A DNA stretch of 51,030 nt, taken from assembly GCA_964250345.1 (NCBI GenBank), contig CAXUFZ010000002.1, positions 1-51,030 of the forward strand, read 5' to 3'. This DNA is from an uncultured Rubrobacteraceae bacterium (GTDB lineage: Bacteria > Actinomycetota > Rubrobacteria > Rubrobacterales > Rubrobacteraceae). Position 1 is the stretch's first letter, and each line of letters opens with the position of its first letter. Position numbers and translations under genes: made by a program. Below are positions 1,379 through 34,052 of this stretch, one piece after another. The notes under the pieces are model-generated. The model saw only the letters and a list, made by a program, of their open reading frames with translations, did not search any database and had not been told where the DNA came from.

Positions 1379-1400
1379 ACGTCCGCCACCCGGCACATTT
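1379..1400 (-). promoter_or_regulatory. Conserved EPS-locus palindromic motif, copy 1
   Basis: AAATGTGCCGGGTGGCGGACGT; -10-like GAGGAT 19 nt downstream (1359-1354). Confidence 0.65.
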
Positions 1401-3030
1401 ACCAGGGCATCGCCTCCAGGACGCGCCCGATCACGCCGGCCACCACGGCCACGAACCCGTCCGACCTTGCGGGGGCCGGACGGTTGTTCTCGGGGGACGC
1501 CGGTAGCCCGTTCTCCTGCAGGAGGACATCCTTCTCCACGTCCGTGAGGTAGCGTCCGCCCTTCTCGGCCGGGGTGTTGTTGTATTGGGAGAGCGTCTCC
1601 AGCCTGTTGGCCCACTTGAAGCGGTACGCCCGGCCCTCGGCGCCGTCGTACCAGTAGGCGCCGCCCGCCCCGGTGTTGGCGGAGGAGGGGGCGTAGATGC
1701 TGGGCGCGCCGGCGGAGATGGCGCCCGGGCTCTCGTTCCAGAAGACCGCCGCGCGGTACCCGGAGCCGGTCGTCTCGTCCACGATCACGCGGTTGTTCCC
1801 CACGACGACCCCCGTGGTCGCGTCGTAGGACCGTTCGTCGGCGTCCCGGCGGTTCTGCTGGACGACGCCGATGCCGGAGGAGTTCCAGGCCAGGACGTTG
1901 CCGTCCACGGCGCCGTTGCGCGAGCCGGCGACGACGATGCCGGCGCCGCTGTAGGAGTCCCCAGCACCCCAGCCGTTCTCCCAGAGCACGTTGTTGGTGA
2001 CGGCGAAGTTCTTCGTGATCTCGACCCGGATGCCCTGGCTCGGGTGGTGGTGGACCCTGTTGTTCGAGACCTCGACGGAGGTCTGGCGGGCGTTGACCAC
2101 GTCGGTCCAGATGCCGATGTCCCCGTTGTGGTGGACCTCGTTGCCGGAGACGTTGGCGGTCTTGGCCTGGGCGATCTTCATGCCGCCGGCCTCCCAGCCG
2201 GGGTCGAAGCCCTCGGTGTTGTTCTCGTAGACGCGGTTGGAGAGGATCTGGACGCGCGCGTCGTTGCTGCCGATGCCGAGCTGCCCGGCGTGGTGGATGT
2301 CGTTGTCCTCGGCCACCAGCGCGTCCCCGAGCGTGAACGCCAGGTTCCTGCCGTGGGCGTACGAGAGGTCGTTGCCCCGCACCGTCCACCCGGAATACCC
2401 GCCGTTCCAGAGCCCGTCGAACCCGGCGTGCCGCATCTCGACGTTCCGCACGGTGACGCCGTTCGACGCCCCGTAGACCCACCGATCCCTGACGGTGACC
2501 TCGACGGTCCGGCCCGTCGGATCCTCGCCGAGCACCACGCGCCGCCCCGCCGCGAGCGCGAACTGGCCCGCCCCCGGGCCGGAGGAGACCTGCGCGAGCT
2601 GCCTCCCGTTCACGAAGACCTGCTCGGGCCGCTCGCAGCGCCGGCTCGCGCCCACGCACCTGTAGCGGTCGGGCGACTCCAGCGCCGGCACGCTCCTCGC
2701 GCTGGTCCAGCCGGCGCCGCCCTTCGTCCACCGCTTCCACACGTCGGAGCCGCGGACGGCGCCACCCCCCGCGCCGTCGAGCGTGAGGGGCTTGCCCACC
2801 TTGACCGTCTCGCGGTACACGCAGCCGTCCGTCAGCTCGACCGTCGAGCCCGGGGCCGCCGCGTTGACCTTCGCCTGCAGGGACTCCTGGCAGGTGGGTG
2901 GAATCTCCGTGGTCTGGGCCGAGGCCGTACCCGCGTTCGGCAAGAGCGCGGCCAACGGCAGGACCAGGCACGCCGCCAGCAGCAGACGCGCGGTCGCGGG
3001 AGATCTCTTGCCACGTCGAATCTTTTTCAT
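1399..3030 (-). CDS. Secreted right-handed parallel beta-helix (pectin-lyase-fold) protein
   Basis: Signal peptide; SLQAKVNAAAPGSTVELTDGCVYRE cap; repeated V.GN.VHHNG..GI Asn-ladder repeats; GGAGGGG RBS. Confidence 0.85.
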   Translation of the reverse strand: MKKIRRGKRSPATARLLLAACLVLPLAALLPNAGTASAQTTEIPPTCQESLQAKVNAAAPGSTVELTDGCVYRETVKVGKPLTLDGAGGGAVRGSDVWKRWTKGGAGWTSARSVPALESPDRYRCVGASRRCERPEQVFVNGRQLAQVSSGPGAGQFALAAGRRVVLGEDPTGRTVEVTVRDRWVYGASNGVTVRNVEMRHAGFDGLWNGGYSGWTVRGNDLSYAHGRNLAFTLGDALVAEDNDIHHAGQLGIGSNDARVQILSNRVYENNTEGFDPGWEAGGMKIAQAKTANVSGNEVHHNGDIGIWTDVVNARQTSVEVSNNRVHHHPSQGIRVEITKNFAVTNNVLWENGWGAGDSYSGAGIVVAGSRNGAVDGNVLAWNSSGIGVVQQNRRDADERSYDATTGVVVGNNRVIVDETTGSGYRAAVFWNESPGAISAGAPSIYAPSSANTGAGGAYWYDGAEGRAYRFKWANRLETLSQYNNTPAEKGGRYLTDVEKDVLLQENGLPASPENNRPAPARSDGFVAVVAGVIGRVLEAMPW

Positions 3031-3058: not shown

Positions 3059-3829
3059 TTACCAGTAGGCGCCGCGGCGGAGCCTCCGGGCGGCGCGCAG
3101 GCCCCTCGCCAGGGCCCGTTTCGAGCGGCGGGTCAGGGGACTTTCGTCGGGGAGGTAGCGGGCGCGGATGCGGTCGTCCTCGACGTTGCTCTCGGCGCGC
3201 ATCTTGCTGTTCTTCTGCTCCGGGTAGCGGCGCATTTGGGACCAGGGGCGGGGGACGTGGTGGATCCCGGCGTGCTCGGCGAAGCGGGCCCAGAGGTCGG
3301 CGTCCATCGCCAGGTCGAAGGCGGGGTCGAGGCCGCCGACCCTCTCGTAGAGGCCGCTCCTCCAGAAGGTCGAGGGCTGGGGCAGGTAGTTGTAGGTGTA
3401 CATAAAGAGGAAGCGGTCGAAGTCGATCTCCTTCTGCCACCGGATGGGCCGGCCCTCGGCGTCGATCCACCTCGCGTCCCCGTAGACGACCTGCCAATCG
3501 GGGTTGTCCACGAACGTCTGGGCCACCTCGAAGAGGGAGCCCGGCTCCAGGAGGTCGTCCGAGCACAGCCAGCCCATGATCCCGCCGGTCGCCAGCCCGA
3601 AGCCCCGCGCCAGCGCCTCCGTCTGCCCCCCGTCGGGCTCGCTCACCCAGTACGCCAGCCGGTCCGAGTAGCGCTCCAGGACCTCCCGGCTCCCGTCCGT
3701 CGAGCCCCCGTCCATGACGATGTACTCCAAATTCGGGTAGCCCTGGTCCAGCACGCTCTTCATCGTCGTCTCCAGGTAACCGGCCTGGTTGAACGACGGC
3801 GTCACCACGGATATCTTCGGGTAGTCCAC
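3059..3829 (-). CDS. Glycosyltransferase family 2
   Basis: PKISVVTPSFNQ..LETTMKSVLDQGY, DGGSTDGS, WLCSDD motifs; start reassigned to GTG 3829 with GGAGGAG RBS. Confidence 0.9.
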   Translation of the reverse strand: MDYPKISVVTPSFNQAGYLETTMKSVLDQGYPNLEYIVMDGGSTDGSREVLERYSDRLAYWVSEPDGGQTEALARGFGLATGGIMGWLCSDDLLEPGSLFEVAQTFVDNPDWQVVYGDARWIDAEGRPIRWQKEIDFDRFLFMYTYNYLPQPSTFWRSGLYERVGGLDPAFDLAMDADLWARFAEHAGIHHVPRPWSQMRRYPEQKNSKMRAESNVEDDRIRARYLPDESPLTRRSKRALARGLRAARRLRRGAYW

Positions 3830-3831
3830 CG

Positions 3832-5394
3832 CTATCTCCTCCCCCAAACCACGCCCCGTCGCGGGCGGTGTACGATCGTGCCGCGCAGCGCCCCGCCCGG
3901 GAAAGCCGGGCGTCCCACGCTCTCTGTCTTCTCCGGCGGCCGATTCTCCTCGAAGCTCGGCGCGACGGACATGATGCCGAGGGCGACGAAGGCAGCCAGG
4001 AACGGGAACTCCATGTACTCCTGCATCAGGGAGTCGGTCAGGTTGAGCAGCAGGTAGAACGTCAGGAACAGGAAGGCCAGCCACCCGAGCGGCCGGCCGC
4101 GGCGGGCCGTTTTGAGGGCGACGAAGATCGCCGCCGTCCAGAAGGCCAGGAAGAGGGTCAGGCCTATCGCGCCGGTGTTGAGCAGCTCTTCGAGGAAGCC
4201 GTTGTGCGCGGAGACGACGGGGAAGCCGACCAGTTGCTCCATGTAGGCGAGGCGGTCCGGGTGCCAGAAGGCCGCGAAGCCCACGCCGGTCAGGGGGCGC
4301 TCCATCTGCGGGATCAGGACCTCCCACAAAGGCACGCGGCCCGTGAGGGAGAGCGAGAGCTCGGCGTCGTCGCGGGTGAGGAAGGGCGCCACGGTGCCCA
4401 GCAGGCCGCCGAGGTACGCGACGCACAGGCCGGCTACCGCCAGGGCCGCCAGCCCGGCCTGGAACACCCTCTCCCGCAGCCGGACGCCGTAGATCAGGTA
4501 GACCAGCCCCAGCGCCAGCAGCGCGAACAGCAGCGGCCCCCGCGTCTTCAGCAAGAGGACGGGGAGCGCCAGAAGCAGGAGGAGCGTCCAGTCGCGTCCC
4601 CTCCACCGCCGCATCCCCGCGAAGGACGCCACGACGAGGGCCATCCCGGCGATGAGGACGGGGCGCGCGACGTAGGTTGTGAACCCGCCGGAGATCTCCA
4701 CCCGCTCGCCGGGGTCCAGGATGTTGAACTGGTCCAGGTGCAGCGGCAGCGGCAACAGGATCACGAGCGCCGAGACGACCCCGGCAACCGTAACGTGCCG
4801 GAGAAACAACCTCCCGCCGTCCCCCCGCCCGCCGTAGAACCCCGCGCCGAGCCCGAAGCTGCCGAGCGTCACGAGCGAGAAGGCCACCAGGTTCCTAACG
4901 GTCAGCGTCGGGTAGACGCTCCAGAACAGCGTGGCGTAGCCCCACAACATGTAGACCCCCCACAAACCCATCAGCCGGCGGTACGCCGGGCCCACACGTC
5001 CCACCGCCGGCACCAAAAACAGCATCCCGACCAGGCCGAAAGCCGCGACCAGCAACTGGTTCTGCAGCGACCCCGACGCCGCCCCTACCCCGACCTCCCT
5101 GGGCGAATAGGCGGCGAGCGGCGCCACCATCGCCACCCACCACAGCAGCAAGAACGCCGACACAGCCCTGTCCACGGTGGTGCCTCGACGCCTCACGACG
5201 GCCACCTCCGCCGCGACGACGCCGGGAGCGCGCGGGGAACGTTCGCTCCTCGTAAGCAGCCAGAGGCCGACGCCGAAGACGAGCGCCACCGCGACGAACG
5301 TCGGGGCCGGCGCGTAGGCCACGCCCGCCCCGCCCAGGCACGCCAGGGCGGCGAGCGCGACGACCGACGCCATCTTCGAGGGCAAAAAACTCAT
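3832..5394 (-). CDS. O-antigen ligase / Wzy-type polysaccharide polymerase family membrane protein
   Basis: About 12 hydrophobic segments; LTGRVPLW, PLTGVG, SAHNGFLEELLNTGAIG motifs; start ATG 5394 uncertain. Confidence 0.85.
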   Translation of the reverse strand: MSFLPSKMASVVALAALACLGGAGVAYAPAPTFVAVALVFGVGLWLLTRSERSPRAPGVVAAEVAVVRRRGTTVDRAVSAFLLLWWVAMVAPLAAYSPREVGVGAASGSLQNQLLVAAFGLVGMLFLVPAVGRVGPAYRRLMGLWGVYMLWGYATLFWSVYPTLTVRNLVAFSLVTLGSFGLGAGFYGGRGDGGRLFLRHVTVAGVVSALVILLPLPLHLDQFNILDPGERVEISGGFTTYVARPVLIAGMALVVASFAGMRRWRGRDWTLLLLLALPVLLLKTRGPLLFALLALGLVYLIYGVRLRERVFQAGLAALAVAGLCVAYLGGLLGTVAPFLTRDDAELSLSLTGRVPLWEVLIPQMERPLTGVGFAAFWHPDRLAYMEQLVGFPVVSAHNGFLEELLNTGAIGLTLFLAFWTAAIFVALKTARRGRPLGWLAFLFLTFYLLLNLTDSLMQEYMEFPFLAAFVALGIMSVAPSFEENRPPEKTESVGRPAFPGGALRGTIVHRPRRGVVWGRR

Positions 5395-5488
5395 CGACGC
5401 GCGTCGACGGAACACGAACTCGGTTCTCCCGCTCTGGTCACGAGGGTCTCCATACAAGGTCAGATGATGGCGCGGGCGCGACCCGCCC

Positions 5489-5510
5489 GCATCCGCCAGA
5501 CGGCACATTA
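5489..5510 (-). promoter_or_regulatory. Conserved EPS-locus palindromic motif, copy 2
   Basis: TAATGTGCCGTCTGGCGGATGC; CATCAT 19 nt downstream (5469-5464). Confidence 0.7.
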
Positions 5511-5516
5511 ATCCGC

Positions 5517-5555
5517 GGGCGGGCCGGAACCCGGTGCCGGGCCTTCGGCCTGCCC
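5517..5555 (-). terminator. GC-rich hairpin after the sulfotransferase operon
   Basis: GGGCGGGCCGGA...TTCGGCCTGCCC imperfect inverted repeat right after the stop at 5557; no clear U-tract. Confidence 0.35.
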
Positions 5556-5556
5556 C

Positions 5557-6348
5557 CTAGCCTCGCCGTCTCCGGGGAACGCCGCCGGTCAGGGCGGCGG
5601 ACCTGTCTTTCGCGGACGTTTCGGAGAGTCTGCCGTGGGCGGCCCGGGCCCGCTCGACGAGAGGACCCAGGTCGAGGGATTCCACCTCCTTCTTGAGCGC
5701 GGCCTTCAGGTTGGCCTTGGAGGCGGAGGGGCGCGCGATCTGCTCCTCGACCAGCACGCTGCCGCGCCTGGCCCTGTGCGACGCCTCGATGCTGGCGAAG
5801 ACCTTCTCCACGTTCTTCTCATCGTGCCCGAAGACGCCGAACGAGGTACCGAACCTCCCGTTGACCCGTTCTATGACCGGGCCGTAGTCCCGCGTCACCT
5901 CCTCGAAGGCGCCGAGCACGAAGTGGTCGCGGTAGCCGGCGACGGCCTCGTAGAAGGAGACGTAGTAGCGGAGTGCGCCCTCCGCCGTGTAGCGCGGGTC
6001 GCGCAGCATCAGGGAGAGGGCGGCGTCCACGGGGTCCCGGAGGAGGACCAGGGCGGGGACGCCGAGCCGGGCGGCGCGCACGATCTGGGCCGGCGCGTGC
6101 ATGTGGTGGGCTATGCGGACCTCGCGCTCCTGGGCCTCCCTGAAGGCGAAGACGGCGAACGTGTTCCCGGACCGGGGAAACCCCTCCACGACGAGGTCCG
6201 TCTTGCGGTCCACGAGCAGGTCCCCGTACCCCTGCCGCGCGCCGTAGACGCCGAAGAAGAGGCGGGGATGCCTGCCCACGTAGACCCGCGCGCGCTCCTT
6301 CGCGGCGCCGATCACGCCCGGTCCGGTTTCCTTTCTACTTGTGGACAT
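5557..6348 (-). CDS. Sulfotransferase-like P-loop protein
   Basis: VEGFPRSGNTF (5'-PSB-like loop) and LLRDPVDAALS (3'-PB-like motif). Confidence 0.7.
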   Translation of the reverse strand: MSTSRKETGPGVIGAAKERARVYVGRHPRLFFGVYGARQGYGDLLVDRKTDLVVEGFPRSGNTFAVFAFREAQEREVRIAHHMHAPAQIVRAARLGVPALVLLRDPVDAALSLMLRDPRYTAEGALRYYVSFYEAVAGYRDHFVLGAFEEVTRDYGPVIERVNGRFGTSFGVFGHDEKNVEKVFASIEASHRARRGSVLVEEQIARPSASKANLKAALKKEVESLDLGPLVERARAAHGRLSETSAKDRSAALTGGVPRRRRG

Positions 6349-7309
6349 GCACGCGCCTCCAATCGGGCAACATGCCGAGCTTGCGGCGCAGGATCTTGGG
6401 CTCCCCGGCGGCGTAGGCGAGGCCGTAGCAGGCCCGGCCCGCGTCGGAGAGGAACCCCCGCCCCCGGATGGCGTCGAGCTCCGACATCAGATCCTCGAGG
6501 TCGTAGCCCATCGTCTTGAGGCGGTCGCGGCCGATCCAACGCAGGTAGCGCCGGCACCAGGCCTTCCTCAAGGGGCCCGCGAGCGTCGTCTTCCAGCGCT
6601 CCAGGGGCTCCCGGCTCACAGCGGCGTACCGTCGCGTCCCCGTGGGATCGCCCTTCCTACCGTTCAACGACACGCCGGAGAAGGATGAGAGGACCGAGGG
6701 GTCAAAGCCCAGATCGAGGTGACGAAAGACCCGCTCCCAGCTCGCCTCCGGCCCCGTCACGAGGTCCTCGAACCGGACCGCGAGGGCGTTCGAGGCGTTG
6801 TCCTCGTAGGCGTTTACGAGGTTTTCGAGGCCATCGTAGAGGTCGATCTTGTGCCGGTACAGGTTCCACCGGCCCCCGCCCCACGTCTCGATCACGGAGG
6901 CGGCGACGGCCAGGGGGTTGCGCCACAGGAACAGGTGCCCGGCGTCGGGGAAGGCGGAGATGACGTCGGGGGCGATGAGGTGGTAGCGCGGCGTCTTGTC
7001 CAAAAAGTATCGGGCGCCGTCCGGACTTGCCTTCTCGTACAGCCCCTCGGCCAGACCGCGGACCGCGGCGAGGTAGTCCTGCTTGCCGTTGGGCAGCGTT
7101 CCGCAGAAATCCTCTAGAGCCGTGACGGCCGAGGTGTGGTTGTACTCGGCGTAGAGGCCGCGATCCCGCAGCGCGTAGAAGAAGGGGAGCAGGAGCCAGG
7201 GCTCTGAGGCGGTCGCCACCGCGTCGTGCGCCGCCAGCACGCGCTGGGCCAGCGTCGAGCCCGACCGCGGCAGCGAGAACAGGAAGAGCGGTCGCGGCCC
7301 GTTGCTCAA
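6335..7309 (-). CDS. Sulfotransferase family protein
   Basis: FLFSLPRSGSTLAQRVL, FLDKTP, WRNPLAVAAS, VRFEDLV; TTG start overlaps upstream TGA (TTGA coupling). Confidence 0.88.
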   Translation of the reverse strand: MSNGPRPLFLFSLPRSGSTLAQRVLAAHDAVATASEPWLLLPFFYALRDRGLYAEYNHTSAVTALEDFCGTLPNGKQDYLAAVRGLAEGLYEKASPDGARYFLDKTPRYHLIAPDVISAFPDAGHLFLWRNPLAVAASVIETWGGGRWNLYRHKIDLYDGLENLVNAYEDNASNALAVRFEDLVTGPEASWERVFRHLDLGFDPSVLSSFSGVSLNGRKGDPTGTRRYAAVSREPLERWKTTLAGPLRKAWCRRYLRWIGRDRLKTMGYDLEDLMSELDAIRGRGFLSDAGRACYGLAYAAGEPKILRRKLGMLPDWRRVHVHK

Positions 7310-8178
7310 GAGTCCCCAAGCTCGTAGCCGAGCTCGACCAGGAGCGGCCCGACGACCTCGTTTACGGCCTTCACGTGCTCCTCCGAGAACTCGTCCCGCC
7401 AGCCGCCCGCGCGCCCCTTGCGGAACGTGCTCCCCGAACCGAAGAGGTTCTCCCGCACCCGGAGGAACTCGTCGTCCTCCCTCTCGATGCCGAGGTATGC
7501 CGCGACCTCCCTGACGGCCCTGAGCTGCGCCCGTTCGTCGCCCCCCCCTTTGGGACCGACGAGGTCCTCGAACCGCACCACGCAGGCGCCGCCGCGCTCG
7601 CCCCAGGCGAGGAACCCGCGGTAGCGCTCGTCCAGGGACCGTAAGCGGTGTTCGCCCAGCTCGCCGCCGCGGATGGAGAGCATCAGCCGCTCGCCGTCGT
7701 CCGGCAGCGCCAGGTACGCCCGGTGGGCGAAGTGGTCCGTCCGCCCCTTCAGGTGGTGCATGTGGGAGACGGCCACGTCCCTCGGGTCGCGCACGATGCA
7801 GACGGTCTTCATCCCCTGCTCCCCGAGCAGCGCGTCGAACTGCGGGCTGTAGGCGCAGTGGGCGCTCACCGCCGAGCCCTCCGGGACCCGGCCCAGGCGC
7901 GCCTCCAGCCACCGGCGGTTGACCGGCGCCGGGAAGTCTATGCCGACGGGCACCGTCTCCGCGCCGCGTTCCGTGAAGAGCTTGCGCGTGAGGGCGAGCC
8001 GGTCGAGGCCCACGTTCCTCCGCACGCCCTTGCGGTGGTGCTCGTAACCGAGCAGCGTGAGCAGGCGCAGGAGCAGGTGTGTCCCGCTCTTGGGGATCGA
8101 GTTCGCCACCACCCGGCCCCGCGCGGCCCGCTTGGCGGGAGACTCCCCCGTCGCGGGGCTCGCGCCGCGGACTACCAT
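7306..8178 (-). CDS. Sulfotransferase domain protein (paralog of 8172..9146)
   Basis: NSIPKSGTHLL, VRDPRDVAVS, VRFEDL, TFRKGRAGGWRDEFS (RKGxxGxW PAPS motif); start ATG 8178. Confidence 0.9.
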   Translation of the reverse strand: MVVRGASPATGESPAKRAARGRVVANSIPKSGTHLLLRLLTLLGYEHHRKGVRRNVGLDRLALTRKLFTERGAETVPVGIDFPAPVNRRWLEARLGRVPEGSAVSAHCAYSPQFDALLGEQGMKTVCIVRDPRDVAVSHMHHLKGRTDHFAHRAYLALPDDGERLMLSIRGGELGEHRLRSLDERYRGFLAWGERGGACVVRFEDLVGPKGGGDERAQLRAVREVAAYLGIEREDDEFLRVRENLFGSGSTFRKGRAGGWRDEFSEEHVKAVNEVVGPLLVELGYELGDS

Positions 8179-9146
8179 CCTTCGTCCTCTTCGTAGCCGA
8201 GCCGGACGAGAACGTCCTGCGCCTGCTCCTTGACGGCCTCTTTGTGCTCGGCGGAGAACTCGTCGCGCCACCCTCCCGAGCGGCCCTTTCGGAACGTCCG
8301 GCCCGACCCGAAGAGGCCGGCCCGTATCTCCCGCAGCCGACCCTCCCCAACCTCGAGCCCGAGGTGGGAGACGGTCCTCGCCACCGCCTCGCGCTGGGCC
8401 TCCTCGCCGCCGCCGCCCGCGGGGCCGACGAGGTCCTCGAACCTGACGAGCAACGCCCCGCCCCGGCGCTCCCAGTCCAGAAAGTTGCCGTAGCGCTCCC
8501 CCATCGGGAGGATGCGGTGCCCGCCGAGCACGCCGCCCCGGATCGAGAACATCAGCCGCTCGCGGTCGTTGGGGAGGGCCAGGTACGCCTTGTAGGCCGG
8601 GTGACGGGGCAGCTTCTTGAGGTAGTGCATGTGGGAGACGGCGGTGTCGCGCGGGTCGCGCGCGATGCACACCACCTTCAGGCCCTGGGAGCGGACGATG
8701 CCCCCGAAGCCCTCGCTGTAGGAGCAGTGGGCGCTCACGACCGAGCGGTCGGGGACTTTCTCGAAGCGGTTCTCCAGCCAGCGGCGTCCGATCTCCCCGG
8801 GCGACTCGACGCCGAGGGTCACCTTCTCGGGCCCGCGGTCCCTGATGAGGCGCCGCAGCCAGGGTATCCGTCCGTCCGTCACCAGGTGCGGCCCGACGCC
8901 GAGGAACCGGCCCGGCTCCCTGGCGCCGGCGGCCTTCCGCAGCAGCCGCTCGTGGCGGGGGCCACCGTCGTCGCGGACCGGGGTGGGCCCGAAGCCGCCG
9001 AAGTCCACGATCCCGTACCCCAGCTCGGTCAGCAGGCGCAGGAGCAGGTGCGTGCCGCTCTTGGGGATCGAGTTGGCGAGCACCCGTCCCCGCGCGGCGA
9101 CCGCGGTCCTCTCGGGCGTGGGGGTATGCATGACGGTCCTCCTCAT
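8172..9146 (-). CDS. Sulfotransferase domain protein
   Basis: NSIPKSGTHLL, ARDPRDTAVS, TFRKGRSGGWRDEFS. Confidence 0.9.
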   Translation of the reverse strand: MRRTVMHTPTPERTAVAARGRVLANSIPKSGTHLLLRLLTELGYGIVDFGGFGPTPVRDDGGPRHERLLRKAAGAREPGRFLGVGPHLVTDGRIPWLRRLIRDRGPEKVTLGVESPGEIGRRWLENRFEKVPDRSVVSAHCSYSEGFGGIVRSQGLKVVCIARDPRDTAVSHMHYLKKLPRHPAYKAYLALPNDRERLMFSIRGGVLGGHRILPMGERYGNFLDWERRGGALLVRFEDLVGPAGGGGEEAQREAVARTVSHLGLEVGEGRLREIRAGLFGSGRTFRKGRSGGWRDEFSAEHKEAVKEQAQDVLVRLGYEEDEGW

Positions 9147-10555
9147 CGGTTCCTCCCGATCAGCCTACGTAGAAGCCCCGTCGGTACGGTTACGTGCGTC
9201 CAGATCCCGGCCTTCCACCGCGCCGCGAGCACCATGGCCGCGTTCTGGAAGACGACGGAGGCCGCGGCGACGGCCGCGATGCCGGTCCCGCCGTACCCTT
9301 GAACGACCCACAGGGCGCCGGAGACGAACAGCAGGCCGCTGGCGATGGAGATCCACATCATCAGGTTCTGGTTGCCGGTCATCTGCAGCGCGAGCCCGCA
9401 CGACCCGGACCACACGGCGGCGAGCTTGCCGAGGCTGAGCAGGGCGAGCACGACGGCCCCGGCCGCGTAGAACTCGCCGTAGACGAGGCCGAGTATCGGC
9501 CCCCCGGCGAGGAGCAGCACCGCGAGCGCCAGGAGCGACGGGATGCCGGCGATGGTGGCGACCGGGCGCATCGTGCCTTCAAGGCGGTCCGTCTCGCCGC
9601 GGGCGTAGAGGCCGGCGATCACGGGCGGCAGCACGGCGTTGACGACCATGAGCGGCATCGTCACGAGCGCGACGAACCGCGAGGCGGCGCCGTAGATCGC
9701 CACCTCCTCCCCGCCCCGGAAGGCCGCGAGGATCCAGATGTCCGACTGAAGCAGGAAGAACACGGTCAGGTTGGTGACGAGCACCGGCGCCGAGACGCGC
9801 AGCATCTCCCCCACCGCGAGCGAATCGCCGCCCGTCGAGGCGTTGTCCCCGAGCGCCCGCACCTTCAGGCGCAGGACCCAGGCCGAGACGAGCGCGCTGA
9901 CGATTCCGGTGCCGACCATCACGAGCATGACGGTCCAGAGGTCAATAGCATCCGCCGTCCAACACAGGTAGCCGAGGGCGGCGAGCATCATGGCGCGCAT
10001 CAGGAGGCCCGCGCTGTTGCCGCCGGTGGCGACGCCGCCGAAGAGGGTGGCGAGCCTGACGTCGTGCAGGCCGCGGAAGCTCTCGGCGAACAGCTCCTGG
10101 ACGGTGGAGACCGCGATCCAACCGGCCACCAGCCCCGTGACCGCCACGAGCGCCGGCGACCCGAAGAGCGAGCCCGCCACGAGCGGCCCGAGCAGCAGGT
10201 AGGCCACGGCGGAGCCCACGGCCCCGAGGCCGCCCAGGGCCGTCGCCAGCCGGACGGCGCGGCGCGCGCGGCGCGGCCTATCCAGTCCTAGACTCTCGGC
10301 GACGAAGCGGACGGCGGCGCGGTTCAGGCCCAGGCAGCCGACGATGGCGCCGAGCGAGACCACGCTGAGGGCGAGAAAGTACGCCCCGAGCTCGGCCGGG
10401 GCGAGCATCCGGGCGAGCAGGGCGTTGGTGGCGACGCCCGCGACCGCGGCCCCCGCCTTGCCCCCGATGGCCCAGGCGCTGCCCGAGAGCAGGCGCTTCT
10501 TGAGCGCCGCCGCGTCGAGGGAGACCCCGCCGATGTCCCCGAGCCTGCCGACCAT
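9143..10555 (-). CDS. wzx: Wzx-type polysaccharide flippase (MOP superfamily)
   Basis: 12-14 TM helices; LARMLAPAELGAY, SDIWILAAF..EVAIYGAASR. Confidence 0.85.
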   Translation of the reverse strand: MVGRLGDIGGVSLDAAALKKRLLSGSAWAIGGKAGAAVAGVATNALLARMLAPAELGAYFLALSVVSLGAIVGCLGLNRAAVRFVAESLGLDRPRRARRAVRLATALGGLGAVGSAVAYLLLGPLVAGSLFGSPALVAVTGLVAGWIAVSTVQELFAESFRGLHDVRLATLFGGVATGGNSAGLLMRAMMLAALGYLCWTADAIDLWTVMLVMVGTGIVSALVSAWVLRLKVRALGDNASTGGDSLAVGEMLRVSAPVLVTNLTVFFLLQSDIWILAAFRGGEEVAIYGAASRFVALVTMPLMVVNAVLPPVIAGLYARGETDRLEGTMRPVATIAGIPSLLALAVLLLAGGPILGLVYGEFYAAGAVVLALLSLGKLAAVWSGSCGLALQMTGNQNLMMWISIASGLLFVSGALWVVQGYGGTGIAAVAAASVVFQNAAMVLAARWKAGIWTHVTVPTGLLRRLIGRNR

Positions 10556-10565
10556 CTTCCCCGGG

Positions 10566-11297
10566 CTAGTCCTTCTCGTAGGAGCCGTAATAGCCGTAGT
10601 AGCCGGCGTTCTTGGACTCCTTCACCTTGTTGGCGACGGTCCCGATCACGTTGGCCCCCACGCCCTGCAAGACCTTCATGGCCTGCCGGACGCTCTTCTT
10701 GCGCGACGCGCCGGCGTCGAGGACGAGCAGGACGCCGTCGCCGTGGCGGGCGAGGACGGCCCCCTCGGAGACCGTGCAGACCGGCGGCGAGTCGAGGAGC
10801 ACGTAGTCGTACTCGCCCCGCACCCGCGAAAGCAGGTCCGTGAAGCGCCGGGAGCCCAGGATCTCCGCCGGGTTCGGCGGCACGGCCCCGGCGGGCACGA
10901 GCTTGAGTCCCGGGACGGGCTCCTGCATGGCGTCTTCCAGGCTGCTCTCCCCGGCCAGGACGTCGACGAAGCCGGGCGAGCCGTTCGCCCAGAACAGCTT
11001 GTGCTGGGCCGGGCGGCGCAGGTCGCAGTCCAGGAGCAGGACGCTCTTGTCCGCGCGGGCCAGCGAGATCGCTAGGTTCGCGCACGTCGTGCTCTTGCCC
11101 TCCTTCGGGTTCGCGCTGGTCACGGCGATCACCGTCGGCGGCGCGTCGATGAACGCGTAGAAGAGGTTGGTCCTGAGCATCCTGTAGGCCTCGGCCGCGA
11201 TCCCCGAAGGCTCGTGCAAAGAGACCAGGCTCTCCGACGAGAGGTCCTTCCCGTCGCGCGCCGGCTGTTCCCCGACCCTTCTCTGAAGCAGGCTCAT
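10566..11297 (-). CDS. CpsD/CapB-family bacterial tyrosine kinase
   Basis: AEAYRMLRTNL, Walker A SANPKEGKST, DCDLRRP, VLLDSPP, C-terminal Tyr cluster GYYGYYGSY; start ATG 11297. Confidence 0.92.
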   Translation of the reverse strand: MSLLQRRVGEQPARDGKDLSSESLVSLHEPSGIAAEAYRMLRTNLFYAFIDAPPTVIAVTSANPKEGKSTTCANLAISLARADKSVLLLDCDLRRPAQHKLFWANGSPGFVDVLAGESSLEDAMQEPVPGLKLVPAGAVPPNPAEILGSRRFTDLLSRVRGEYDYVLLDSPPVCTVSEGAVLARHGDGVLLVLDAGASRKKSVRQAMKVLQGVGANVIGTVANKVKESKNAGYYGYYGSYEKD

Positions 11298-11301
11298 CCC
11301 T

Positions 11302-12036
11302 CTATCCTTTCCGGGCGCGGACGGCCGCGAAGACGGGCACGACGCCGAAGTTGGGCACGCCGGAGATCTCCTCGACCTCCTCGACCGAGCGCCACCCGTC
11401 GTCCAGGTTCTCCAGCAAGAACGCGACCCCGACACCGAGCATCAGCCCGAGCCCGAGGGCCAGGAGGCCGTTGCGTAGGGGATCGGGCGAGACGGGGCTC
11501 TGCGGCGTCGAGGCGCCCTCCCAGACCGACGCCGTGATGATGCTCGCGCCGGCCTCGGAGGAGGAGATCCTGCCGGCCGCCGCGTTCGCGACGGCGTTGA
11601 CGGTCTCCCGCACCCCGGCGGGGTCCGAGCCGGCGTAGGTGATCTGGATGAACTGCGTCTCGTCTACCTGCTCGACGGTGAGGTTCTGCAAGATCTGGCC
11701 CGGCGCGACCCCGGAGCCGAGCGCGAGGGCGGCGTCCTCGGCGACCGGCCGGCTCGCCACCGCCACGGTCATGGTCTGCGTGAGCGGCTGCAGCCCCTGG
11801 AGGTCGTTGCTCGAAAGCGCGGCCTCCGGGTCCGTGGGGGCCTTCTGGCCGACGAGCAGCTTTGCCGAAGCCTCGTAGGTCGGCGTCTGCATCATCGACG
11901 CGCCTACCGCCGCGCCCGCGAAGACGAGCGCCACGAGCGCCACGACCCACGCCCGCCGCCAGACGATGCCGGCGTAATCCATCAAAGAAGCGTACCGCTC
12001 GCCGTCAACCGCAGTCCCGTGCACCGAAGATCCCAT
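11302..12036 (-). CDS. CpsC/CapA (YveK)-type polysaccharide co-polymerase, kinase activator
   Basis: Two TM helices, TPTYEASAKLLV, A..P.SPVSP, EEVEEISGVPNFGVVP; ATG 12036 with GGAGG. Confidence 0.88.
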   Translation of the reverse strand: MGSSVHGTAVDGERYASLMDYAGIVWRRAWVVALVALVFAGAAVGASMMQTPTYEASAKLLVGQKAPTDPEAALSSNDLQGLQPLTQTMTVAVASRPVAEDAALALGSGVAPGQILQNLTVEQVDETQFIQITYAGSDPAGVRETVNAVANAAAGRISSSEAGASIITASVWEGASTPQSPVSPDPLRNGLLALGLGLMLGVGVAFLLENLDDGWRSVEEVEEISGVPNFGVVPVFAAVRARKG

Positions 12037-12089
12037 CCATAATAGCCTCCACCAACGCCCCGGATTATCGGACCGGGTACGGCCCCCCG

Positions 12090-12111
12090 GCATCCGTCGA
12101 ATGGCACATAT
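12090..12111 (-). promoter_or_regulatory. Conserved EPS-locus palindromic motif, copy 3
   Basis: ATATGTGCCATTCGACGGATGC; GATAAT 20 nt downstream (12069-12064). Confidence 0.7.
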
Positions 12112-12141
12112 TGGGGCGGATGCCGGGGGTCGGTGTCCGGT

Positions 12142-12263
12142 CGGGAGTCGCGAGGCGCTCGCTCCGCTCGCTTCGGGAGTCGGGAGTCGTAAGAGCCGAA
12201 GAGCCGGGAGCCGAATTTCTCGACTCCCGACTCCAGATTCCCGACTCCAGATTCCCGACTCCC
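12142..12263. repeat. REP-like element built from GGGAGTC heptamers, copy A
   Basis: GAGGCGCTCGC-N3-GCTCGCTTCGGGAGTCGGGAGTCG followed by inverted CGACTCC arrays. Confidence 0.75.
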
Positions 12264-12270
12264 AGGGTTT

Positions 12271-14811
12271 CTACCCCACGGTCACCCGCGAGACTGCCGG
12301 GGCCGAGTTGTCGAAGGCGTCGTTGACCGTGAAGGTCACGCGGCGGTCGCCGGCGGTGGGGTTGGCGGCGGTGTTGTTGTAGGTGACGGACTTCAGGGCC
12401 TTCTCGTAGTCGGCCTTGGAGGCGCGGCCGGTGAGGCTCAGGGTTCCGGTGGCCGCGTCGTAGGACTTGGAGATGGTCGTTCCGGCGACGTCGGCGTCGA
12501 GCTTCTCGGCGACGCCGTCGGGGTTGTTGGCGAGGGTTATGGTGGCGGACCTCATGTTGGCGTCGTCGGCGTCGAAGACGGCGACGTTGCCGCCGGCGAG
12601 TTGCGTGGGGCCGCCGGAGAAGGTCGCGGCGTGGTCGGTGTTGCCCGACGTGAGGAGGTTGGAGGCCGGGACGATCTGGCGTCCCTGACCCGGGTACGCC
12701 CAGGCGAGCCTCGCCACGGCCCCGCCGCCGTTCTCGTAGTAGTCCATCTGGATGTCGTAGCGCTTGCCGGCCTCGAGGGTGATGGTCCCTGAGTCGTCGG
12801 CGGGGGCGCGGTCGGTCCAGTTCTCGACGAGCGTCTTGCCGTCCACGAAGAGGCGGACGCCGTCGTCGGCGGTCGTGGTGAAGGTGTACTCGCCGCTCTG
12901 GGGCGCCTCGACCTGGCCCGTCCAGCGGGCGCTGTAGGTGTCGGGGCCGATGGACGGGTGCGGGGAGCCGTTGCCGAAGTCGAAGTTGACGTGGCGGTCG
13001 ACGCGGTTCACGCTCGGGCCGGTGAGGTCCATAGTGTCGAAGTACTCGGCGTCGAGTCCGCCGGCGTTCACGGCCCCGAAGAAGAGGTTATTGGAGGGGA
13101 TGATCTGGCGCCCCTGGCCGGGGTAGGCCCACGCGAGCCGCGCCACGGCGCCGCCGCCGTCCTCGTAGTAGTCGAGGCGGATATCGTAGCGTTTGCCGGC
13201 CTCCAGGGCGACGGTGCCGGAGTCGTCGGTGGGACCGTGGTTCGTCCAGTTCTCGACCACGAGGTTGCCGTCGACGTAGAGGCGCACGCCGTCGTCGCTG
13301 TTGGTGGTGAAGGTGTAGTCGCCGGTGACGGGGGCCTCGACCTTGCCGGTCCAGCGGGCGCTGTAGGTGTCGGGGCCCATGCTGGGATCCGGCGAGCCGC
13401 CGCCGAAGTCGAAGTCGACCGTCGGGTCCGCGCGGGTGACCTCGGCCCCCGTGAAGTCTATGTTGTCGAAGTAGGTGGCGTTGAGGCCGCCGCGCTGCAG
13501 GCCGTTCTGGCGCCCGAAGCCGTCGAGGTCGACCTTGGGCTTGGAGTAGTTCACCGGGCGGAAGGCCGGGTCGAGGGTGAAGCGGGCGAAGTTGGACTGC
13601 GCGACACCCGAGACGCCCGTGAAGCCGCCGCCGACCCACAGGTAGTCGCCGACGGTCTGCATCGTCCAGGCGCCGTTGTAGTTCGGCCGCGTCTTCTGGT
13701 CGAGGGACGGGATCCAGGTGCAGTCTATGGCGCCGTTGGCCGGGTTGACGGCCACGATGCCCTTGAGGTACTTGCCGCCGCAGGCCTCCTGGTCGAGCGG
13801 GTTGATGCCGAAGTGCCCGCCGATGACGAGCTTGGAGTTGTCCGGGGTCATCGCGATGGTCTGCGGGTTGCCGACCAGCCCGAAGCGCCAGACCTGGGTC
13901 CCCTCGTTGCCGTTGTCCAGGCGGAAGGAGGCCGCGTAGTTCGGCTTCTCGCCGAAGGCCACGTGCAGGCGCTGGCCCGTCACGATCATGTCCCAGCCGA
14001 TCTGGGGGCTGTCGAGCACGCCGGCGGGTATGGCCCAGGGATCGACGTTGCCGGTGGCGATGTCTACCCGCGCGATGCTCTGGCGAGCCTCGGTGACGCC
14101 GTTGGAGCCCTTCACGGTCGTGAACCCGCCGGCGACGAAGGCCGTGGCCCCGTCGGCGGCGAACTTGATGTCGTGGACGGTCGCGTTGGCCCGGGGCTTC
14201 CAGTTGGCGTCGAGCGCGCCCGTCGAGGCGTTCACGAGCGCCAGGTTCTGCCGGTTCGTCCCGTTGACCGAGAGGAACTTGCCCCCGACGAACAGGTTCT
14301 GGCCGCTCGGGGTGATGGCGAAGACGGTGGAGCCGCCGTCCCCCACCCTCGGGTTGAAGGGCTTGACCGCGCCCGTGGCCCCGTCCACGGCGGCCATGTT
14401 GGTCCTCGGCTGGCCGGCGACGGAGGTGAACTTGCCCCCGACGTAGACCTGCCCGTTCTTCACGGCCAGCGAGCGCACGACGGGCGCCACGGCGCTGTCT
14501 CCCGTCACGGCGGGTTTCCACGAGGCGATGGCCGCCCCCGTGGAGACGTCTATGGCGGCCAGGTTGCTCACGGCGAGGGTCTTGCCGCCCTGGCCGGAGG
14601 GCTTCTCCCTCACCTGCGAGAACTTGCCGCCAATATACAGCGTCTTGCCGTCCTCCGAGAGCGCCGACGCGTAGACGATGCCCGTGGTCATCCAGACGCC
14701 GGGGTCTGGCGTCTGGCGCATGTTGACGGCCTGCGCGGGCATGACGCCCAAGACCAGCCCCGAAAGCGCAAAGATCGTCGCAAAGAATACCAACGTGATC
14801 CTACGGGTCAT
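12271..14811 (-). CDS. Secreted beta-propeller protein with two PA14 domains and a C-terminal Ig/cadherin-like domain
   Basis: Signal peptide; propeller repeats; two PA14 units (YSARWTG.VEAP..G.YTFTT.(S/A)DDGVRL.VDG); C-terminal TGTLSLTG.AS.ADYEKALKSVTYNN..R.VTFTVND. Confidence 0.88.
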   Translation of the reverse strand: MTRRITLVFFATIFALSGLVLGVMPAQAVNMRQTPDPGVWMTTGIVYASALSEDGKTLYIGGKFSQVREKPSGQGGKTLAVSNLAAIDVSTGAAIASWKPAVTGDSAVAPVVRSLAVKNGQVYVGGKFTSVAGQPRTNMAAVDGATGAVKPFNPRVGDGGSTVFAITPSGQNLFVGGKFLSVNGTNRQNLALVNASTGALDANWKPRANATVHDIKFAADGATAFVAGGFTTVKGSNGVTEARQSIARVDIATGNVDPWAIPAGVLDSPQIGWDMIVTGQRLHVAFGEKPNYAASFRLDNGNEGTQVWRFGLVGNPQTIAMTPDNSKLVIGGHFGINPLDQEACGGKYLKGIVAVNPANGAIDCTWIPSLDQKTRPNYNGAWTMQTVGDYLWVGGGFTGVSGVAQSNFARFTLDPAFRPVNYSKPKVDLDGFGRQNGLQRGGLNATYFDNIDFTGAEVTRADPTVDFDFGGGSPDPSMGPDTYSARWTGKVEAPVTGDYTFTTNSDDGVRLYVDGNLVVENWTNHGPTDDSGTVALEAGKRYDIRLDYYEDGGGAVARLAWAYPGQGRQIIPSNNLFFGAVNAGGLDAEYFDTMDLTGPSVNRVDRHVNFDFGNGSPHPSIGPDTYSARWTGQVEAPQSGEYTFTTTADDGVRLFVDGKTLVENWTDRAPADDSGTITLEAGKRYDIQMDYYENGGGAVARLAWAYPGQGRQIVPASNLLTSGNTDHAATFSGGPTQLAGGNVAVFDADDANMRSATITLANNPDGVAEKLDADVAGTTISKSYDAATGTLSLTGRASKADYEKALKSVTYNNTAANPTAGDRRVTFTVNDAFDNSAPAVSRVTVG

Positions 14812-14919
14812 AGCTTAACTCCTCCTCGGTTACCTGTTCTACACCCACCGCGCGGGAAGACCGGCGCGGTCTCGAAGCTCTCTAGTCGCAGCAAAGGTTA
14901 CGTCCCGGGGCCGCCGACC

Positions 14920-14941
14920 ACATCCGCCGAACGGCATATTT
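14920..14941 (-). promoter_or_regulatory. Conserved EPS-locus palindromic motif, copy 4
   Basis: AAATATGCCGTTCGGCGGATGT; TAACCT 19 nt downstream (14900-14895). Confidence 0.75.
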
Positions 14942-15042
14942 CGGTCTCTAGGTCTCTAGACTTCAGGGGTCTTGGGGGTGGTTGGCGGCGCCGGGTCCCG
15001 GCACACCGCCCCTCGAGACCCGGGAGACCTCAGAGCCCCCTT

Positions 15043-16560
15043 TCAGCAGGCGTCGCGGCTGAAGAGCAGGGTCTTCGCGGTGCGGGCCAGGAGGATGACG
15101 TCGAGCCAGACGGACCAGTCGTGGACGTAGTGGGCGTCCATGCCGACCCTCTCCAGGAAGGAGGTGTTGGAGCGGCCGGCGACCTGCCAGGGGCCGGTGA
15201 TGCCGGGGGTGACCCGCAGGATCTCGCCCTGCGTCTGCCCGATGTCCTCGGACTCCCGCGGCAGGTAGGGCCGCGGCCCCACGAGGCTCATCTCCCCCCG
15301 CACCACGTTCCAGAGCTGCGGCAACTCGTCGAGGCTCGTCTTGCGCAGCAGCCGCCCGATGCGGGTCACGCGCGGGTCGTCCTTGAGCTTGTGGTACGTG
15401 AGGTACTCCTCGCGCTTCTCTGCGTCCTCCTCCAGGACGCGCTGGAGCAGCGCCTCGGCGTCGGGCACCATCGTGCGGAACTTTATGCAGGGGAAGAGCC
15501 GGCCGTCGCGGCCCATGCGGAAGTCCTTGTAGAAGACCGGCCCGCGCGACTCCAGCCGCACCAGCGCCGCCAGGACCAGGATGACCGGGAGGACGAAGAG
15601 GGCGCCCGCGAGGGTGGCGGCGAGGTCCATCGCGCGCTTCGCCCGCTGGGCCCAGGGGTTGAGCAGGTTGTGCTTGATCTCCACCCCGAACGTCCCGCCG
15701 AGGTCCCGCGCCACGACGGCGGAGTTCGTGATCCCACCGAGATTCGGGATGACGACGATGTGCCTGAAGCTGGCGCTCGCGAGGCTTGTGAAGCGGGCGA
15801 GGTGCTCGCGCCGCGTGTGGGGCATGGCGAAGATCGCCGTGTCGAGCCCGTGCTCCCCGGCCAGCGAGGCCGCGTCGGCGAGGTTGCCGCGGTAGGGCAC
15901 GCCTTCGAGCGACTCGGTCGCCGGCGCCCGGTTGTCGAAGACGCCGATGGGGTTGAGCCCGAACTGCCACTCGTCGCGCAGCACCTTGATGACCCGCATC
16001 CCCGGCTGCTCGGCCCCGAAGACGACGACGGGCTTGCCCCAGACGCCGCCCTTCATCATGGCCCACCGGGTCAGGTTCCTGGCGAACGGGGCCGCGACCA
16101 GGAGCCCGGCGACCCAGGCGAAGAGCAGGAGCCGCGAGAGGCTGTCCCCGGCCTGCGAGGCGAAGGCGAAGGTCGTGGTTATGGCGAGGGTGACGAGGAG
16201 GGCGAGCGTCTGGCGCCGGAGCTCCTCGACGGGCCCGAGCCCGTAGCCCGGGTAGAGCCCGAGCAGGGCCCGCAGCCCGATCCAGGCCGCCGCGTTCGGC
16301 AGGATGCTCGCGACGGCCATCCCGCCCGAGAGCGGGTAGTAGCCCCACACGCTCTGCGCCAGAAAGGCCGCCTGCCACACCGCGAACGCCAGCAGAAAGT
16401 CCGAAGAAACCAGGAGGGCGACCACCAGCGGCTGCCGCCGGAACCGCGCCCGATCCCCGAGCAGCGAGAGCCCGCGCGCGACGCTTCCACCCACGGCCCG
16501 GCCCGGCGCGGCGACGGCCGCGGCGGTCATTGCCCCTGCCCTGCCCTGCCTAGCCGCCAT
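15043..16560 (-). CDS. wbaP: Undecaprenyl-phosphate hexose-1-phosphate transferase (WbaP-like priming glycosyltransferase)
   Basis: KRAMDL, IKFRTM, DDPRVTRIGRLLRKTSLDELPQLWNV..GEMSLVGPRP, PGITGPWQV; N-terminal TM and Rossmann-like domains; GGAGG RBS. Confidence 0.9.
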   Translation of the reverse strand: MAARQGRAGAMTAAAVAAPGRAVGGSVARGLSLLGDRARFRRQPLVVALLVSSDFLLAFAVWQAAFLAQSVWGYYPLSGGMAVASILPNAAAWIGLRALLGLYPGYGLGPVEELRRQTLALLVTLAITTTFAFASQAGDSLSRLLLFAWVAGLLVAAPFARNLTRWAMMKGGVWGKPVVVFGAEQPGMRVIKVLRDEWQFGLNPIGVFDNRAPATESLEGVPYRGNLADAASLAGEHGLDTAIFAMPHTRREHLARFTSLASASFRHIVVIPNLGGITNSAVVARDLGGTFGVEIKHNLLNPWAQRAKRAMDLAATLAGALFVLPVILVLAALVRLESRGPVFYKDFRMGRDGRLFPCIKFRTMVPDAEALLQRVLEEDAEKREEYLTYHKLKDDPRVTRIGRLLRKTSLDELPQLWNVVRGEMSLVGPRPYLPRESEDIGQTQGEILRVTPGITGPWQVAGRSNTSFLERVGMDAHYVHDWSVWLDVILLARTAKTLLFSRDAC

Positions 16561-16957: not shown

Positions 16958-17323
16958 CTAAATCGCGTGCTTGGCCGTGCGGTCGACGAGGGTGAGGATG
17001 TCGGTGAGTTGGATGTTGTCGATGGTCGAGCGCTCGTCGCCCTCGCCGAAGACGGAGGTGGTGTCCCCGTGCGGGTACAGCTCGAGCCAGGTCGGGACGG
17101 CGTCGCGCACCGTCGGGGTGGCCTCGTCGCAGAGGACCATGTCGGGCTGGAGGCGGAAGACCTCTTCCTCCAGGCCGCCCGGTTCCACGAGCACGAACTC
17201 GACGTCGGGCCTGAGCTGCCCGAGCACCTCGGCCGTGACCTCCCGGTAGGCGCGGGGCTCGTTGGCGACCAGCACCCGCGTCCCGTCGGAGCGGCGGCCC
17301 ACGGAGGAAGGGTTGTCTACCAT
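16958..17323 (-). CDS. Hypothetical protein resembling a degenerate receiver domain
   Basis: RVLVANEPRAYRE...LQPDMVLCD pattern like REC beta1 to beta3; start ATG 17323 chosen (TATAAT at 17339-17334). Confidence 0.6.
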   Translation of the reverse strand: MVDNPSSVGRRSDGTRVLVANEPRAYREVTAEVLGQLRPDVEFVLVEPGGLEEEVFRLQPDMVLCDEATPTVRDAVPTWLELYPHGDTTSVFGEGDERSTIDNIQLTDILTLVDRTAKHAI

Positions 17324-17396
17324 GGCGGTGATAATTATACCCGTTCGGTTCGGTCGCTCATAACACGGTGAACTATGCGGCCCGGACCTTTCCGTC

Positions 17397-26337: not shown

Positions 26338-26371
26338 CGCTCGAATCTTAGCACGGCGCTTCGACGGGTTT

Positions 26372-27100: not shown

Positions 27101-27105
27101 AGCCC

Positions 27106-34050: not shown

Positions 34051-34052
34051 AC

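Follow-up and report, generated by a model that had tools for sequence, protein, structure and literature searches.

Which molecule is produced by a bacterial polysaccharide cluster in which four sulfotransferase genes stand in a row between the flippase gene and the polymerase gene? The question is raised by contig CAXUFZ010000002.1 of an uncultured soil bacterium of the Rubrobacteraceae (GenBank assembly GCA_964250345.1), which was analysed over its entire 51,030 nucleotides; this whole stretch, contig C2 in our numbering of genomes (G), contigs (C) and loci (L), is called the window below. The genome (G000) comprises 3.87 Mb in 488 contigs and is 93% complete, the G+C content of the window is about 68-70%, and those relatives of its proteins and loci that carry a name belong to Rubrobacter species and Rubrobacteraceae metagenome bins. 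Gene models were based on frame analysis of the G+C content at third codon positions (GC3) and on Pfam, protein families were scored with Pfam and NCBIfam models against curated cut-offs, and a Kyte-Doolittle window was the sole criterion for membrane and signal segments. With a probability of about 0.7, we read the genes as a Wzx/Wzy operon whose four cytoplasmic sulfotransferases would give a surface or secreted polymer that is densely sulfated before flipping and probably contains fucose.

The cluster is a single co-directional run of minus-strand genes which starts at 16560 and goes down to 168, nearly to the contig end. It encodes WbaP, a PA14/beta-propeller protein, a CpsC-like protein, CpsD, Wzx, the sulfotransferases ST1-ST4, Wzy, a GT2 glycosyltransferase, a beta-helix protein and a beta-propeller protein. 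In the initial annotation a cluster of WbaP, CpsC/CpsD, Wzx, a Wzy-like protein, GT2 and four sulfotransferases had been placed at 3059..16560. The coordinates, gene names and motifs of all these minus-strand genes were reproduced, but the gene of the 846-aa PA14 protein had been left out and the run does not stop at 3059. Between positions 1 and 19500 no promoter-like site was found, which is uninformative for the operon ends, and none of the 14 terminator-like sites there (7.2 +/- 3.5 in shuffled sequences) is informative in this respect.

The WbaP-type polyprenyl-phosphate hexose-1-phosphate transferase (15043..16560, 505 aa) matches PF02397 with 205.9 bits, PF13727, and the WbaP subfamily model TIGR03022 with 460.4 bits (cut-off 403); it has four hydrophobic segments and provides the priming enzyme of a Wzx/Wzy-dependent pathway. 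The CpsC/Wzz-type polysaccharide co-polymerase (11302..12093, its start may be 12036) scores 44.5 bits with the Wzz model PF02706, over the cut-off, and 76.8 bits with TIGR01006, below the cut-off of 296, and contains two hydrophobic segments (residues 50-68 and 206-224). Next to it lies the gene of a CpsD-type bacterial tyrosine autokinase (10566..11297; TIGR01007 178.6 bits, cut-off 108.05) with a C-terminal tyrosine cluster (tail YYGYYGSYEKD, NAGYYGYYGSYEKD), so that the co-polymerase is present as the split CpsC/CpsD pair, the Gram-positive form. The Wzx flippase (9143..10555) matches PF01943 with 58.1 bits, over the cut-off, as well as PF01554 and PF13440. The Wzy-type polymerase with an O-antigen-ligase-like domain (3832..5508) reaches 57.6 bits with PF04932 (cut-off 31.7) and has 12 hydrophobic segments; its start is more likely 5394 or 5373, the proteins of relatives aligning from residue 35-65 onwards. 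Flippase and polymerase are thus both found, with at least 12 hydrophobic segments each. The GT2 glycosyltransferase (3059..3829; PF00535 80.1 bits) has orthologues of 65-69% identity beside Wzy in relatives. It is the only non-priming glycosyltransferase that Pfam detects in the window, and genes for synthesis of the sulfate donor 3'-phosphoadenosine-5'-phosphosulfate (PAPS) are absent from the window by the same search, both as annotated initially.

The four sulfotransferase genes are ST1 (8172..9146, Sulfotransfer_1-type), its paralogue ST2 (7306..8178), ST3 (6335..7309, Sulfotransfer_3-type, with a TTG start) and ST4 (5557..6348, divergent and sulfotransferase-like). They had been described as overlapping and directly following the flippase gene. 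Overlaps do exist between ST1 and ST2 (7 nt), ST2 and ST3 (4 nt) and ST3 and ST4 (14 nt), but that of Wzx with ST1 (4 nt) holds only if ST1 starts at 9146. An ATG at 9131 is preceded by AGGAGG 6 nt upstream, is also used by a public gene call (319 aa), leaves an 11-nt spacer after Wzx, and is the more likely start.

Sulfotransferases carry a 5'-phosphosulfate-binding loop PK/RxGxT after strand 1 and a 3'-phosphate motif R-x-P-x-D-x-x-x-S or similar, and their catalytic base is His in SULT-type and Glu in CurM/TPST-type enzymes. Loop and 3'-phosphate motif are found in each of ST1-ST4, none of which has a hydrophobic segment in the Kyte-Doolittle window. ST1 and ST2, 51.8% identical to each other, score 41.6 and 43.1 bits with PF00685 (cut-off 22) and contain IPKSGTHLL ... 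FRKGRSGGW and IPKSGTHLL ... FRKGRAGGW, respectively, with the 3'-phosphate motif RDPRDxAVS (RDPRDTAVS in ST1). No variation is seen across 16 homologues of the pair in PKSGTH, the His of SAHC, RDPR...S and G..GGW. In an alignment of ST1 with mouse SULT7A1 that spans the His and 3'-phosphate motifs, SAHC stands opposite the PTHLNY segment, in the catalytic region of SULTs. ST3 matches PF13469 with 94.8 bits (cut-off 27) and carries LPRSGSTL and RNPLAVAAS; PRSGST (SLPRSGSTLAQR) and SEPW are kept in six of six full-length orthologues. It resembles the sulfotransferase domain of CurM (4gbm, E 3.8e-8), in which PELH is aligned with SEPW. The N-terminal 140 residues of ST3 also match the NoeE model (E 6e-21), and since their 74.6 bits are far below the cut-off of 500, ST3 is by its sequence no NoeE equivalog.

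When the genes proposed as sulfotransferases were scored with the family models, ST1-ST3 passed Pfam, but ST4 failed all Pfam and NCBIfam models and is supported by its motifs and predicted fold. It carries FPRSGNTF and RDPVDAALS, and in 24 homologues GFPRSxNxF, H84 and R104-x-P-x-D-A-x-x-S112 are invariant, Gly61 inside the loop being nearly so. In the AlphaFold model (predicted local distance difference test, pLDDT, 85.5) these motifs lie on strand-loop-helix elements, with the loops after strands 52-56 and 99-103. Every match listed by Foldseek against the Protein Data Bank (PDB) is a PAPS sulfotransferase (27 at E ≤ 0.001, best E 4e-5), and a PDB sequence search gave chance-level matches only. 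H84 stands opposite the ST1 His only in weak profile alignments, and when ST4 was compared with ST1 or ST3 by single-sequence profiles, the probability was 6-7%. The only Pfam family found in more than two of 45 representatives of the ST4 family is PF00685, in seven of them and weakly, with one (22.5 bits) over the cut-off of 22; as a lead, sulfotransferase clusters are among the neighbours of ST4 in the Atlas. Given that no curated model matches, ST4 is therefore not filed in PF00685 or PF13469, and by motif and fold it is a probable divergent sulfotransferase.

The ST4 family counts 3748 representative clusters at E ≤ 0.001 (1689 at E ≤ 1e-30), and public sources label the homologues hypothetical. 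Members occur in 29 of 101 Rubrobacteraceae genomes (a count that includes G050) and in 27 of 301 sampled Actinomycetota genomes, sometimes as tandem triplets. Such triplets were noticed in two genomes of other actinobacterial families, at L045 (G155:C45) 10000-11897 and L046 (G330:C35) 7131-9089.

The donor and further sugar genes had been expected outside the window, and the genome provides them. Two adenosine-5'-phosphosulfate (APS) kinase loci (PF01583) and two ATP sulfurylase loci (PF01747) were found, all over the cut-offs, so that cysC and sat are each present twice; one sat/cysC pair belongs to a cysH-sir-sat-cysC operon on C32, and the second APS kinase lies on C109 with a sulfatase and a Stf0-type sulfotransferase.

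On C153, five genes in a row encode a kinase-like protein, a GT4 glycosyltransferase, a WecG/TagA-family transferase (TIGR00696 181 bits, cut-off 69), the GDP-mannose 4,6-dehydratase Gmd (TIGR01472 532 bits, cut-off 415) and the GDP-L-fucose synthase Fcl (NF047922 504 bits, cut-off 500). The kinase-like protein of 416 aa has no Pfam match; APH is found on 16-24% of members in its nearest Atlas clusters, a lead only. In G003 a block of 49-81% identity stands after WbaP, in G015, G069 and G087 the counterparts of the kinase-like, GT4 and WecG genes are found at a distance of 3-5 kb past GT2, and the contig of G018 opens with the C-terminus of Fcl followed by the beta-helix gene. Because the block adjoins the cluster in these relatives, C153 probably abuts the left end of the window; the further glycosyltransferases anticipated elsewhere would thus be GT4 and WecG/TagA, together with the GDP-fucose genes.

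The order of genes is conserved across Rubrobacteraceae, as the proposed synteny comparison confirmed. L014 is colinear over PA14-Wzz-CpsD-Wzx-ST1-ST2-ST3-ST4-Wzy-GT2-beta-helix with 52-67% protein identity, and the same order, with insertions, extra sulfotransferases or rearrangements, is found in L006, L008, L009, G015, G069, G087 and G003; clusters of relatives often have five or more sulfotransferases. Orthologues of ST3 (59-65% identity) are present in 15 of 101 genomes of the family, and ten of the other 14 genomes also have a member of the ST4 family at most 5 kb away from the ST3 orthologue (G089, one of the ten, has a weak partial match). Homologues of ST1/ST2, ST4 and the beta-helix protein occur together on one contig (143.9 kb) of the cultured Rubrobacter calidifluminis.

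Genes for secreted proteins flank or interrupt the assembly genes. The 846-aa protein (12271..14811) combines a DUF5122/Rax2-type beta-propeller with tandem PA14 domains (PF07691 223.6 bits in two stretches) and has one N-terminal, signal-like hydrophobic segment (residues 5-23). Its residues 442-720 match the PA14 dyad of the Clostridium anti-sigma-I factor RsgI3 (6qe7, E 5.1e-70), a closely related, polysaccharide-sensing domain, and the gene is kept at the same position in L006, L009, L014, G015, G069 and G087. The right-handed beta-helix protein of CASH/NosD type (1399..3030; PF13229 76.8 bits, in homologues additionally PF05048) also has an N-terminal hydrophobic segment. A PDB sequence search with it gave no match, and its AlphaFold model (pLDDT 88.4) recovered with Foldseek the GH120 enzyme XylC (E 9e-11), GH110 enzymes, some of them bound to sulfated galactans, AlgE epimerases and a K1 capsule lyase, all with template modelling (TM) scores ≤ 0.5. 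The protein is a candidate glycanase, lyase or epimerase for the polymer, and together with the PA14 protein it likely binds or processes the polymer outside the cell. The last gene of the run (168..1316; PF17164 52.7 bits) encodes a secreted DUF5122-type beta-propeller protein, 31% identical to the PA14 protein and a paralogue of its N-terminal part; four such paralogues stand at the corresponding position in L014.

Directly upstream of the cluster and on the same strand is a two-component system, a PAS/HisKA_3 kinase (18181..19215) and a LuxR-type response regulator (17441..18145) by Pfam, which is a candidate regulator of the cluster. Its orthologues adjoin the cluster in G018, G087 and G056 (regulator 56-64%, kinase 52-61% identity).

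From these genes the following pathway can be proposed. WbaP would transfer a hexose-1-phosphate, galactose by subfamily, onto undecaprenyl phosphate, and GT2, probably helped by the GT4 and WecG/TagA-type enzymes of C153, would extend the unit to two to four sugars, one of which is predicted to be L-fucose made by Gmd and Fcl. Each of ST1-ST4 would sulfate one O-position from PAPS at the cytoplasmic face, which would bring the sulfate content to at most about one per sugar. Since PAPS is a metabolite of the cytoplasm and the four enzymes are free of hydrophobic segments, sulfation should precede flipping and take place on the undecaprenyl-diphosphate-linked repeat. As there are two transferases in the window and two on C153, a repeat of two to four sugars with up to four sulfates is expected. 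Because the N-terminus of ST3 matches the NoeE model and Fcl belongs to a block predicted to adjoin the cluster, sulfation of the fucose is a reasonable guess. Wzx would then flip the unit and Wzy polymerise it, with the CpsC/CpsD pair setting chain length and output, the secreted PA14/beta-propeller and beta-helix proteins binding or trimming the polymer extracellularly, and the upstream two-component system controlling expression. At the level of sequence the initial suggestion of a multiply sulfated capsule or exopolysaccharide is supported. Rubrobacteraceae are known for extreme desiccation and radiation tolerance; a role of the polymer in desiccation or biofilm is speculation.

Several observations weigh against such a polymer or against parts of the pathway. 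C153 and the window share no end overlap of at least 15 bases, their adjacency being deduced from relatives only; the only genomes in which Gmd and Fcl are linked with the cluster are G000 (on C153), G003 and, as a fragment, G018, and G015, G069 and G087 carry a different epimerase at this position. WbaP is not adjacent to the cluster in G018. ST4 gave no Pfam match at E ≤ 0.01 and no NCBIfam match at E ≤ 1, its agreement in fold with the matches is weak (TM about 0.4), and its profile-profile probability is 37% against the ST1/ST2 family (alignment against alignment, over the His and 3'-phosphate region) and 4% against ST3. The model PF04932 cannot separate a polymerase from a ligase or protein O-glycosyltransferase, and Wzy could be a ligase; four LCP (LytR-CpsA-Psr) ligase genes are present in the genome, none of them in the cluster. 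These last facts would suit a sulfated short chain attached to the wall or, in S-layer or general O-glycosylation, to protein, with the Wzy_C protein serving as ligase or oligosaccharyltransferase: PF04932 spans WaaL- and PglL-type ligases as well as Wzy, and only two to four glycosyltransferases are available. We consider this unlikely. CpsC and CpsD accompany high-molecular-weight polymerisation in Wzy-dependent capsule systems, and a polymer is favoured because the CpsC-type co-polymerase and the CpsD kinase with its tyrosine cluster are conserved in the cluster; the secreted proteins, glycan-binding and beta-helix, are likewise in line with a polymer.

The number of sulfates may be overestimated if ST4 or one of the paralogues ST1 and ST2 is inactive, redundant, or specific for a different donor or acceptor. 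That ST4 lacks a curated model and that ST1 and ST2 are 52% identical agrees with this, and synechan is reported to change little on loss of xssE, one of its two sulfotransferase genes (PMC8205485). Fewer than four sulfates nevertheless seem quite improbable to us, as the PAPS-loop residues are conserved in all four proteins, with invariant columns in the 24 and 16 homologues of ST4 and ST1/ST2, and all four positions are kept in L014, relatives often carrying five or more. Very improbable in our judgement is that the sulfotransferases are mere neighbours of the Wzx/Wzy genes and act on a glycolipid, compatible solute or secondary metabolite. It is true that the nearest solved or curated relatives of ST3 (the CurM domain, NoeE-like enzymes) use non-polymer substrates, that those of ST1 with solved structures are small-molecule SULTs, and that the genome also has a Stf0-type operon with its own APS kinase. 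But the reading frames of the four genes, placed between wzx and wzy, overlap or almost touch, this placement is kept across several genera, and in seven of eight loci outside Rubrobacteraceae a glycosyltransferase match, searched with our own query set only, was located no more than 20 kb from the ST4-family gene. The sulfated Wzx/Wzy polymer thus remains the reading that we prefer.

In this genome, matches to PF13469 or PF00685 at E ≤ 0.001 occur at 21 distinct places, to which ST4 adds a 22nd; 19 of the sulfotransferase places are over the Pfam cut-off, including the Stf0-type gene of C109 via PF09037 only. That gene, in the operon L025 (3734-6673), scores 137.8 bits with PF09037 and 169.7 bits with the trehalose 2-sulfotransferase model, below its cut-off of 400. 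Rubrobacter is known for trehalose accumulation, and the product of the operon may be a sulfated trehalose-type solute or lipid. A second glycan locus, L021 (G000:C16, 2333-13939), has four tandem Sulfotransfer_3 genes, two APH-family kinase-like genes, an ABC exporter, GT28 and GT4 transferases and a UDP-glucose dehydrogenase, and more sulfotransferase loci lie on C90, C296, C165, C231, C277, C383 and C13. Among Rubrobacteraceae genomes at least 90% complete, 51 of 53 have PF13469 matches (median 12 per genome of 3-4 Mb, up to 32); the same search gave matches in two of 14 control genomes. Judged by gene content this suggests that sulfation is a lineage-wide trait of Rubrobacteraceae.

Some neighbouring features can be added. 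The sulfotransferase block of relatives contains a gene for a 354-aa protein without Pfam match (L006:7042-8106, G015:C9, G069:C8, G087:C1 and L049 13037-13993), which tblastn did not find in this genome. It is 87-92% identical among genomes of the same genus, compared with 50-60% identity of its neighbours to the window proteins; the idea that it is a mobile element was dropped given a 48% homologue inside a related cluster of another actinobacterial family. A 149-aa reading frame of coding-type composition (16958-17407, GC3 0.87) and without Pfam match separates the response regulator from WbaP and shares their strand. The same contig carries the chromosomal origin region (24720-39912), with parB, parA, yidC and rnpA followed by dnaA, dnaN, recF, gyrB and gyrA by Pfam, and about 14 kb separate dnaA from the polysaccharide cluster.

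Sulfated polysaccharides, among them heparin, carrageenan and fucoidan, serve as valuable materials and drugs and are still sourced from animals and algae, and to our knowledge there are few bacterial producers with known genes. The cluster is noteworthy for its high ratio of sulfotransferases to sugars with likely fucose, for the unmodelled ST4 family, and for the family-wide expansion in a lineage with cultured strains; with R. calidifluminis in culture the prediction is checkable by standard chemistry. A far-reaching version, in which a repeat of two to four sugars, modified by four sulfotransferases, makes up a fucoidan-like coat with about one sulfate per sugar, ST4 founds a large missed family and glycan sulfation is a lineage-wide trait of Rubrobacteraceae, not a single-locus oddity, we put forward only tentatively and hold to be doubtful as a whole. 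ST4 itself points to a sizeable sulfotransferase-like family that escapes current annotation, and a 2024 review describes a detection gap as limiting the finding of bacterial polysaccharide sulfotransferases (PMC11625862). By title and abstract, no paper returned by our searches deals with an expansion of sulfotransferases in Rubrobacteraceae; a Rubrobacter radiotolerans gene was once tested as a phenol sulfotransferase candidate, according to a published paper.

How does the cluster compare with known systems? That few bacterial sulfated polysaccharide pathways are characterised had been rightly noted, but the prior work was understated, as reports on Actinoplanes (PMC13390465) and Vibrio (PMC11641403) indicate. 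The rhizobial fucose and Nod-factor sulfotransferases, NoeE and the KpsS of Mesorhizobium loti cited in the same review (PMC11625862), have lipo-oligosaccharides or K-antigen as acceptors and not a Wzy repeat unit. In the marine Gram-negatives Vibrio sp. KMM 8419 and Cobetia marina KMM 1449 sulfation of the capsule is reported as proven by nuclear magnetic resonance, and their loci, like the genes described here, combine sulfotransferases with PAPS supply (PMC11641403, PMC11766843). The Vibrio locus is described as using an ABC-transporter route, with cysNDC in the locus and one sulfotransferase per region (PMC11641403), in contrast to the Wzx/Wzy route, the PAPS genes elsewhere and the four-gene sulfotransferase block of our genome.

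The synechan xss locus of Synechocystis sp. PCC 6803 likewise unites, as described, Wzx, Wzy and co-polymerase, glycosyltransferases, a two-component system and sulfotransferases from more than one Pfam family, and its authors regard modification of the repeat unit on the cytoplasmic side as general for Wzx/Wzy systems (PMC8205485). Its product is a demonstrated sulfated exopolysaccharide, and its diderm host possesses a separate OPX gene and the STAND regulator XssQ (PMC8205485); neither gene was seen here, and a kinase/regulator pair stands adjacent in the window. Synechan is made with eight glycosyltransferase and two sulfotransferase genes and has a sugar to sulfate ratio of 8:2 (PMC8205485), against four sulfotransferases and two transferases in the window, or four with C153, so that the predicted ratio of sulfate to sugar is far above that of synechan. 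The actinobacterial wps-1 cluster of Actinoplanes missouriensis (2026), predicted to make a sulfated exopolysaccharide and in its published description not chemically shown to do so, has Wzx, Wzy and Wzz, sulfotransferases of two families and a kinase-like protein, as here (PMC13390465). It carries two sulfotransferases, an S-adenosylmethionine methyltransferase and a GH26 hydrolase (PMC13390465), where our cluster counts four sulfotransferases, one of them from the unmodelled ST4 family. Pfam finds neither a methyltransferase nor a GH26 gene in the window, and a kinase-like gene is present only on C153 and as a lead, so the wps-1 gene set is not matched. By gene content, the secreted PA14, beta-propeller and beta-helix proteins and the split CpsC/CpsD set our cluster apart from wps-1. 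With synechan, wps-1 and the marine sulfated capsules, this kind of system is already in print, and the Rubrobacteraceae cluster and wps-1 are the same kind of system and different clusters.

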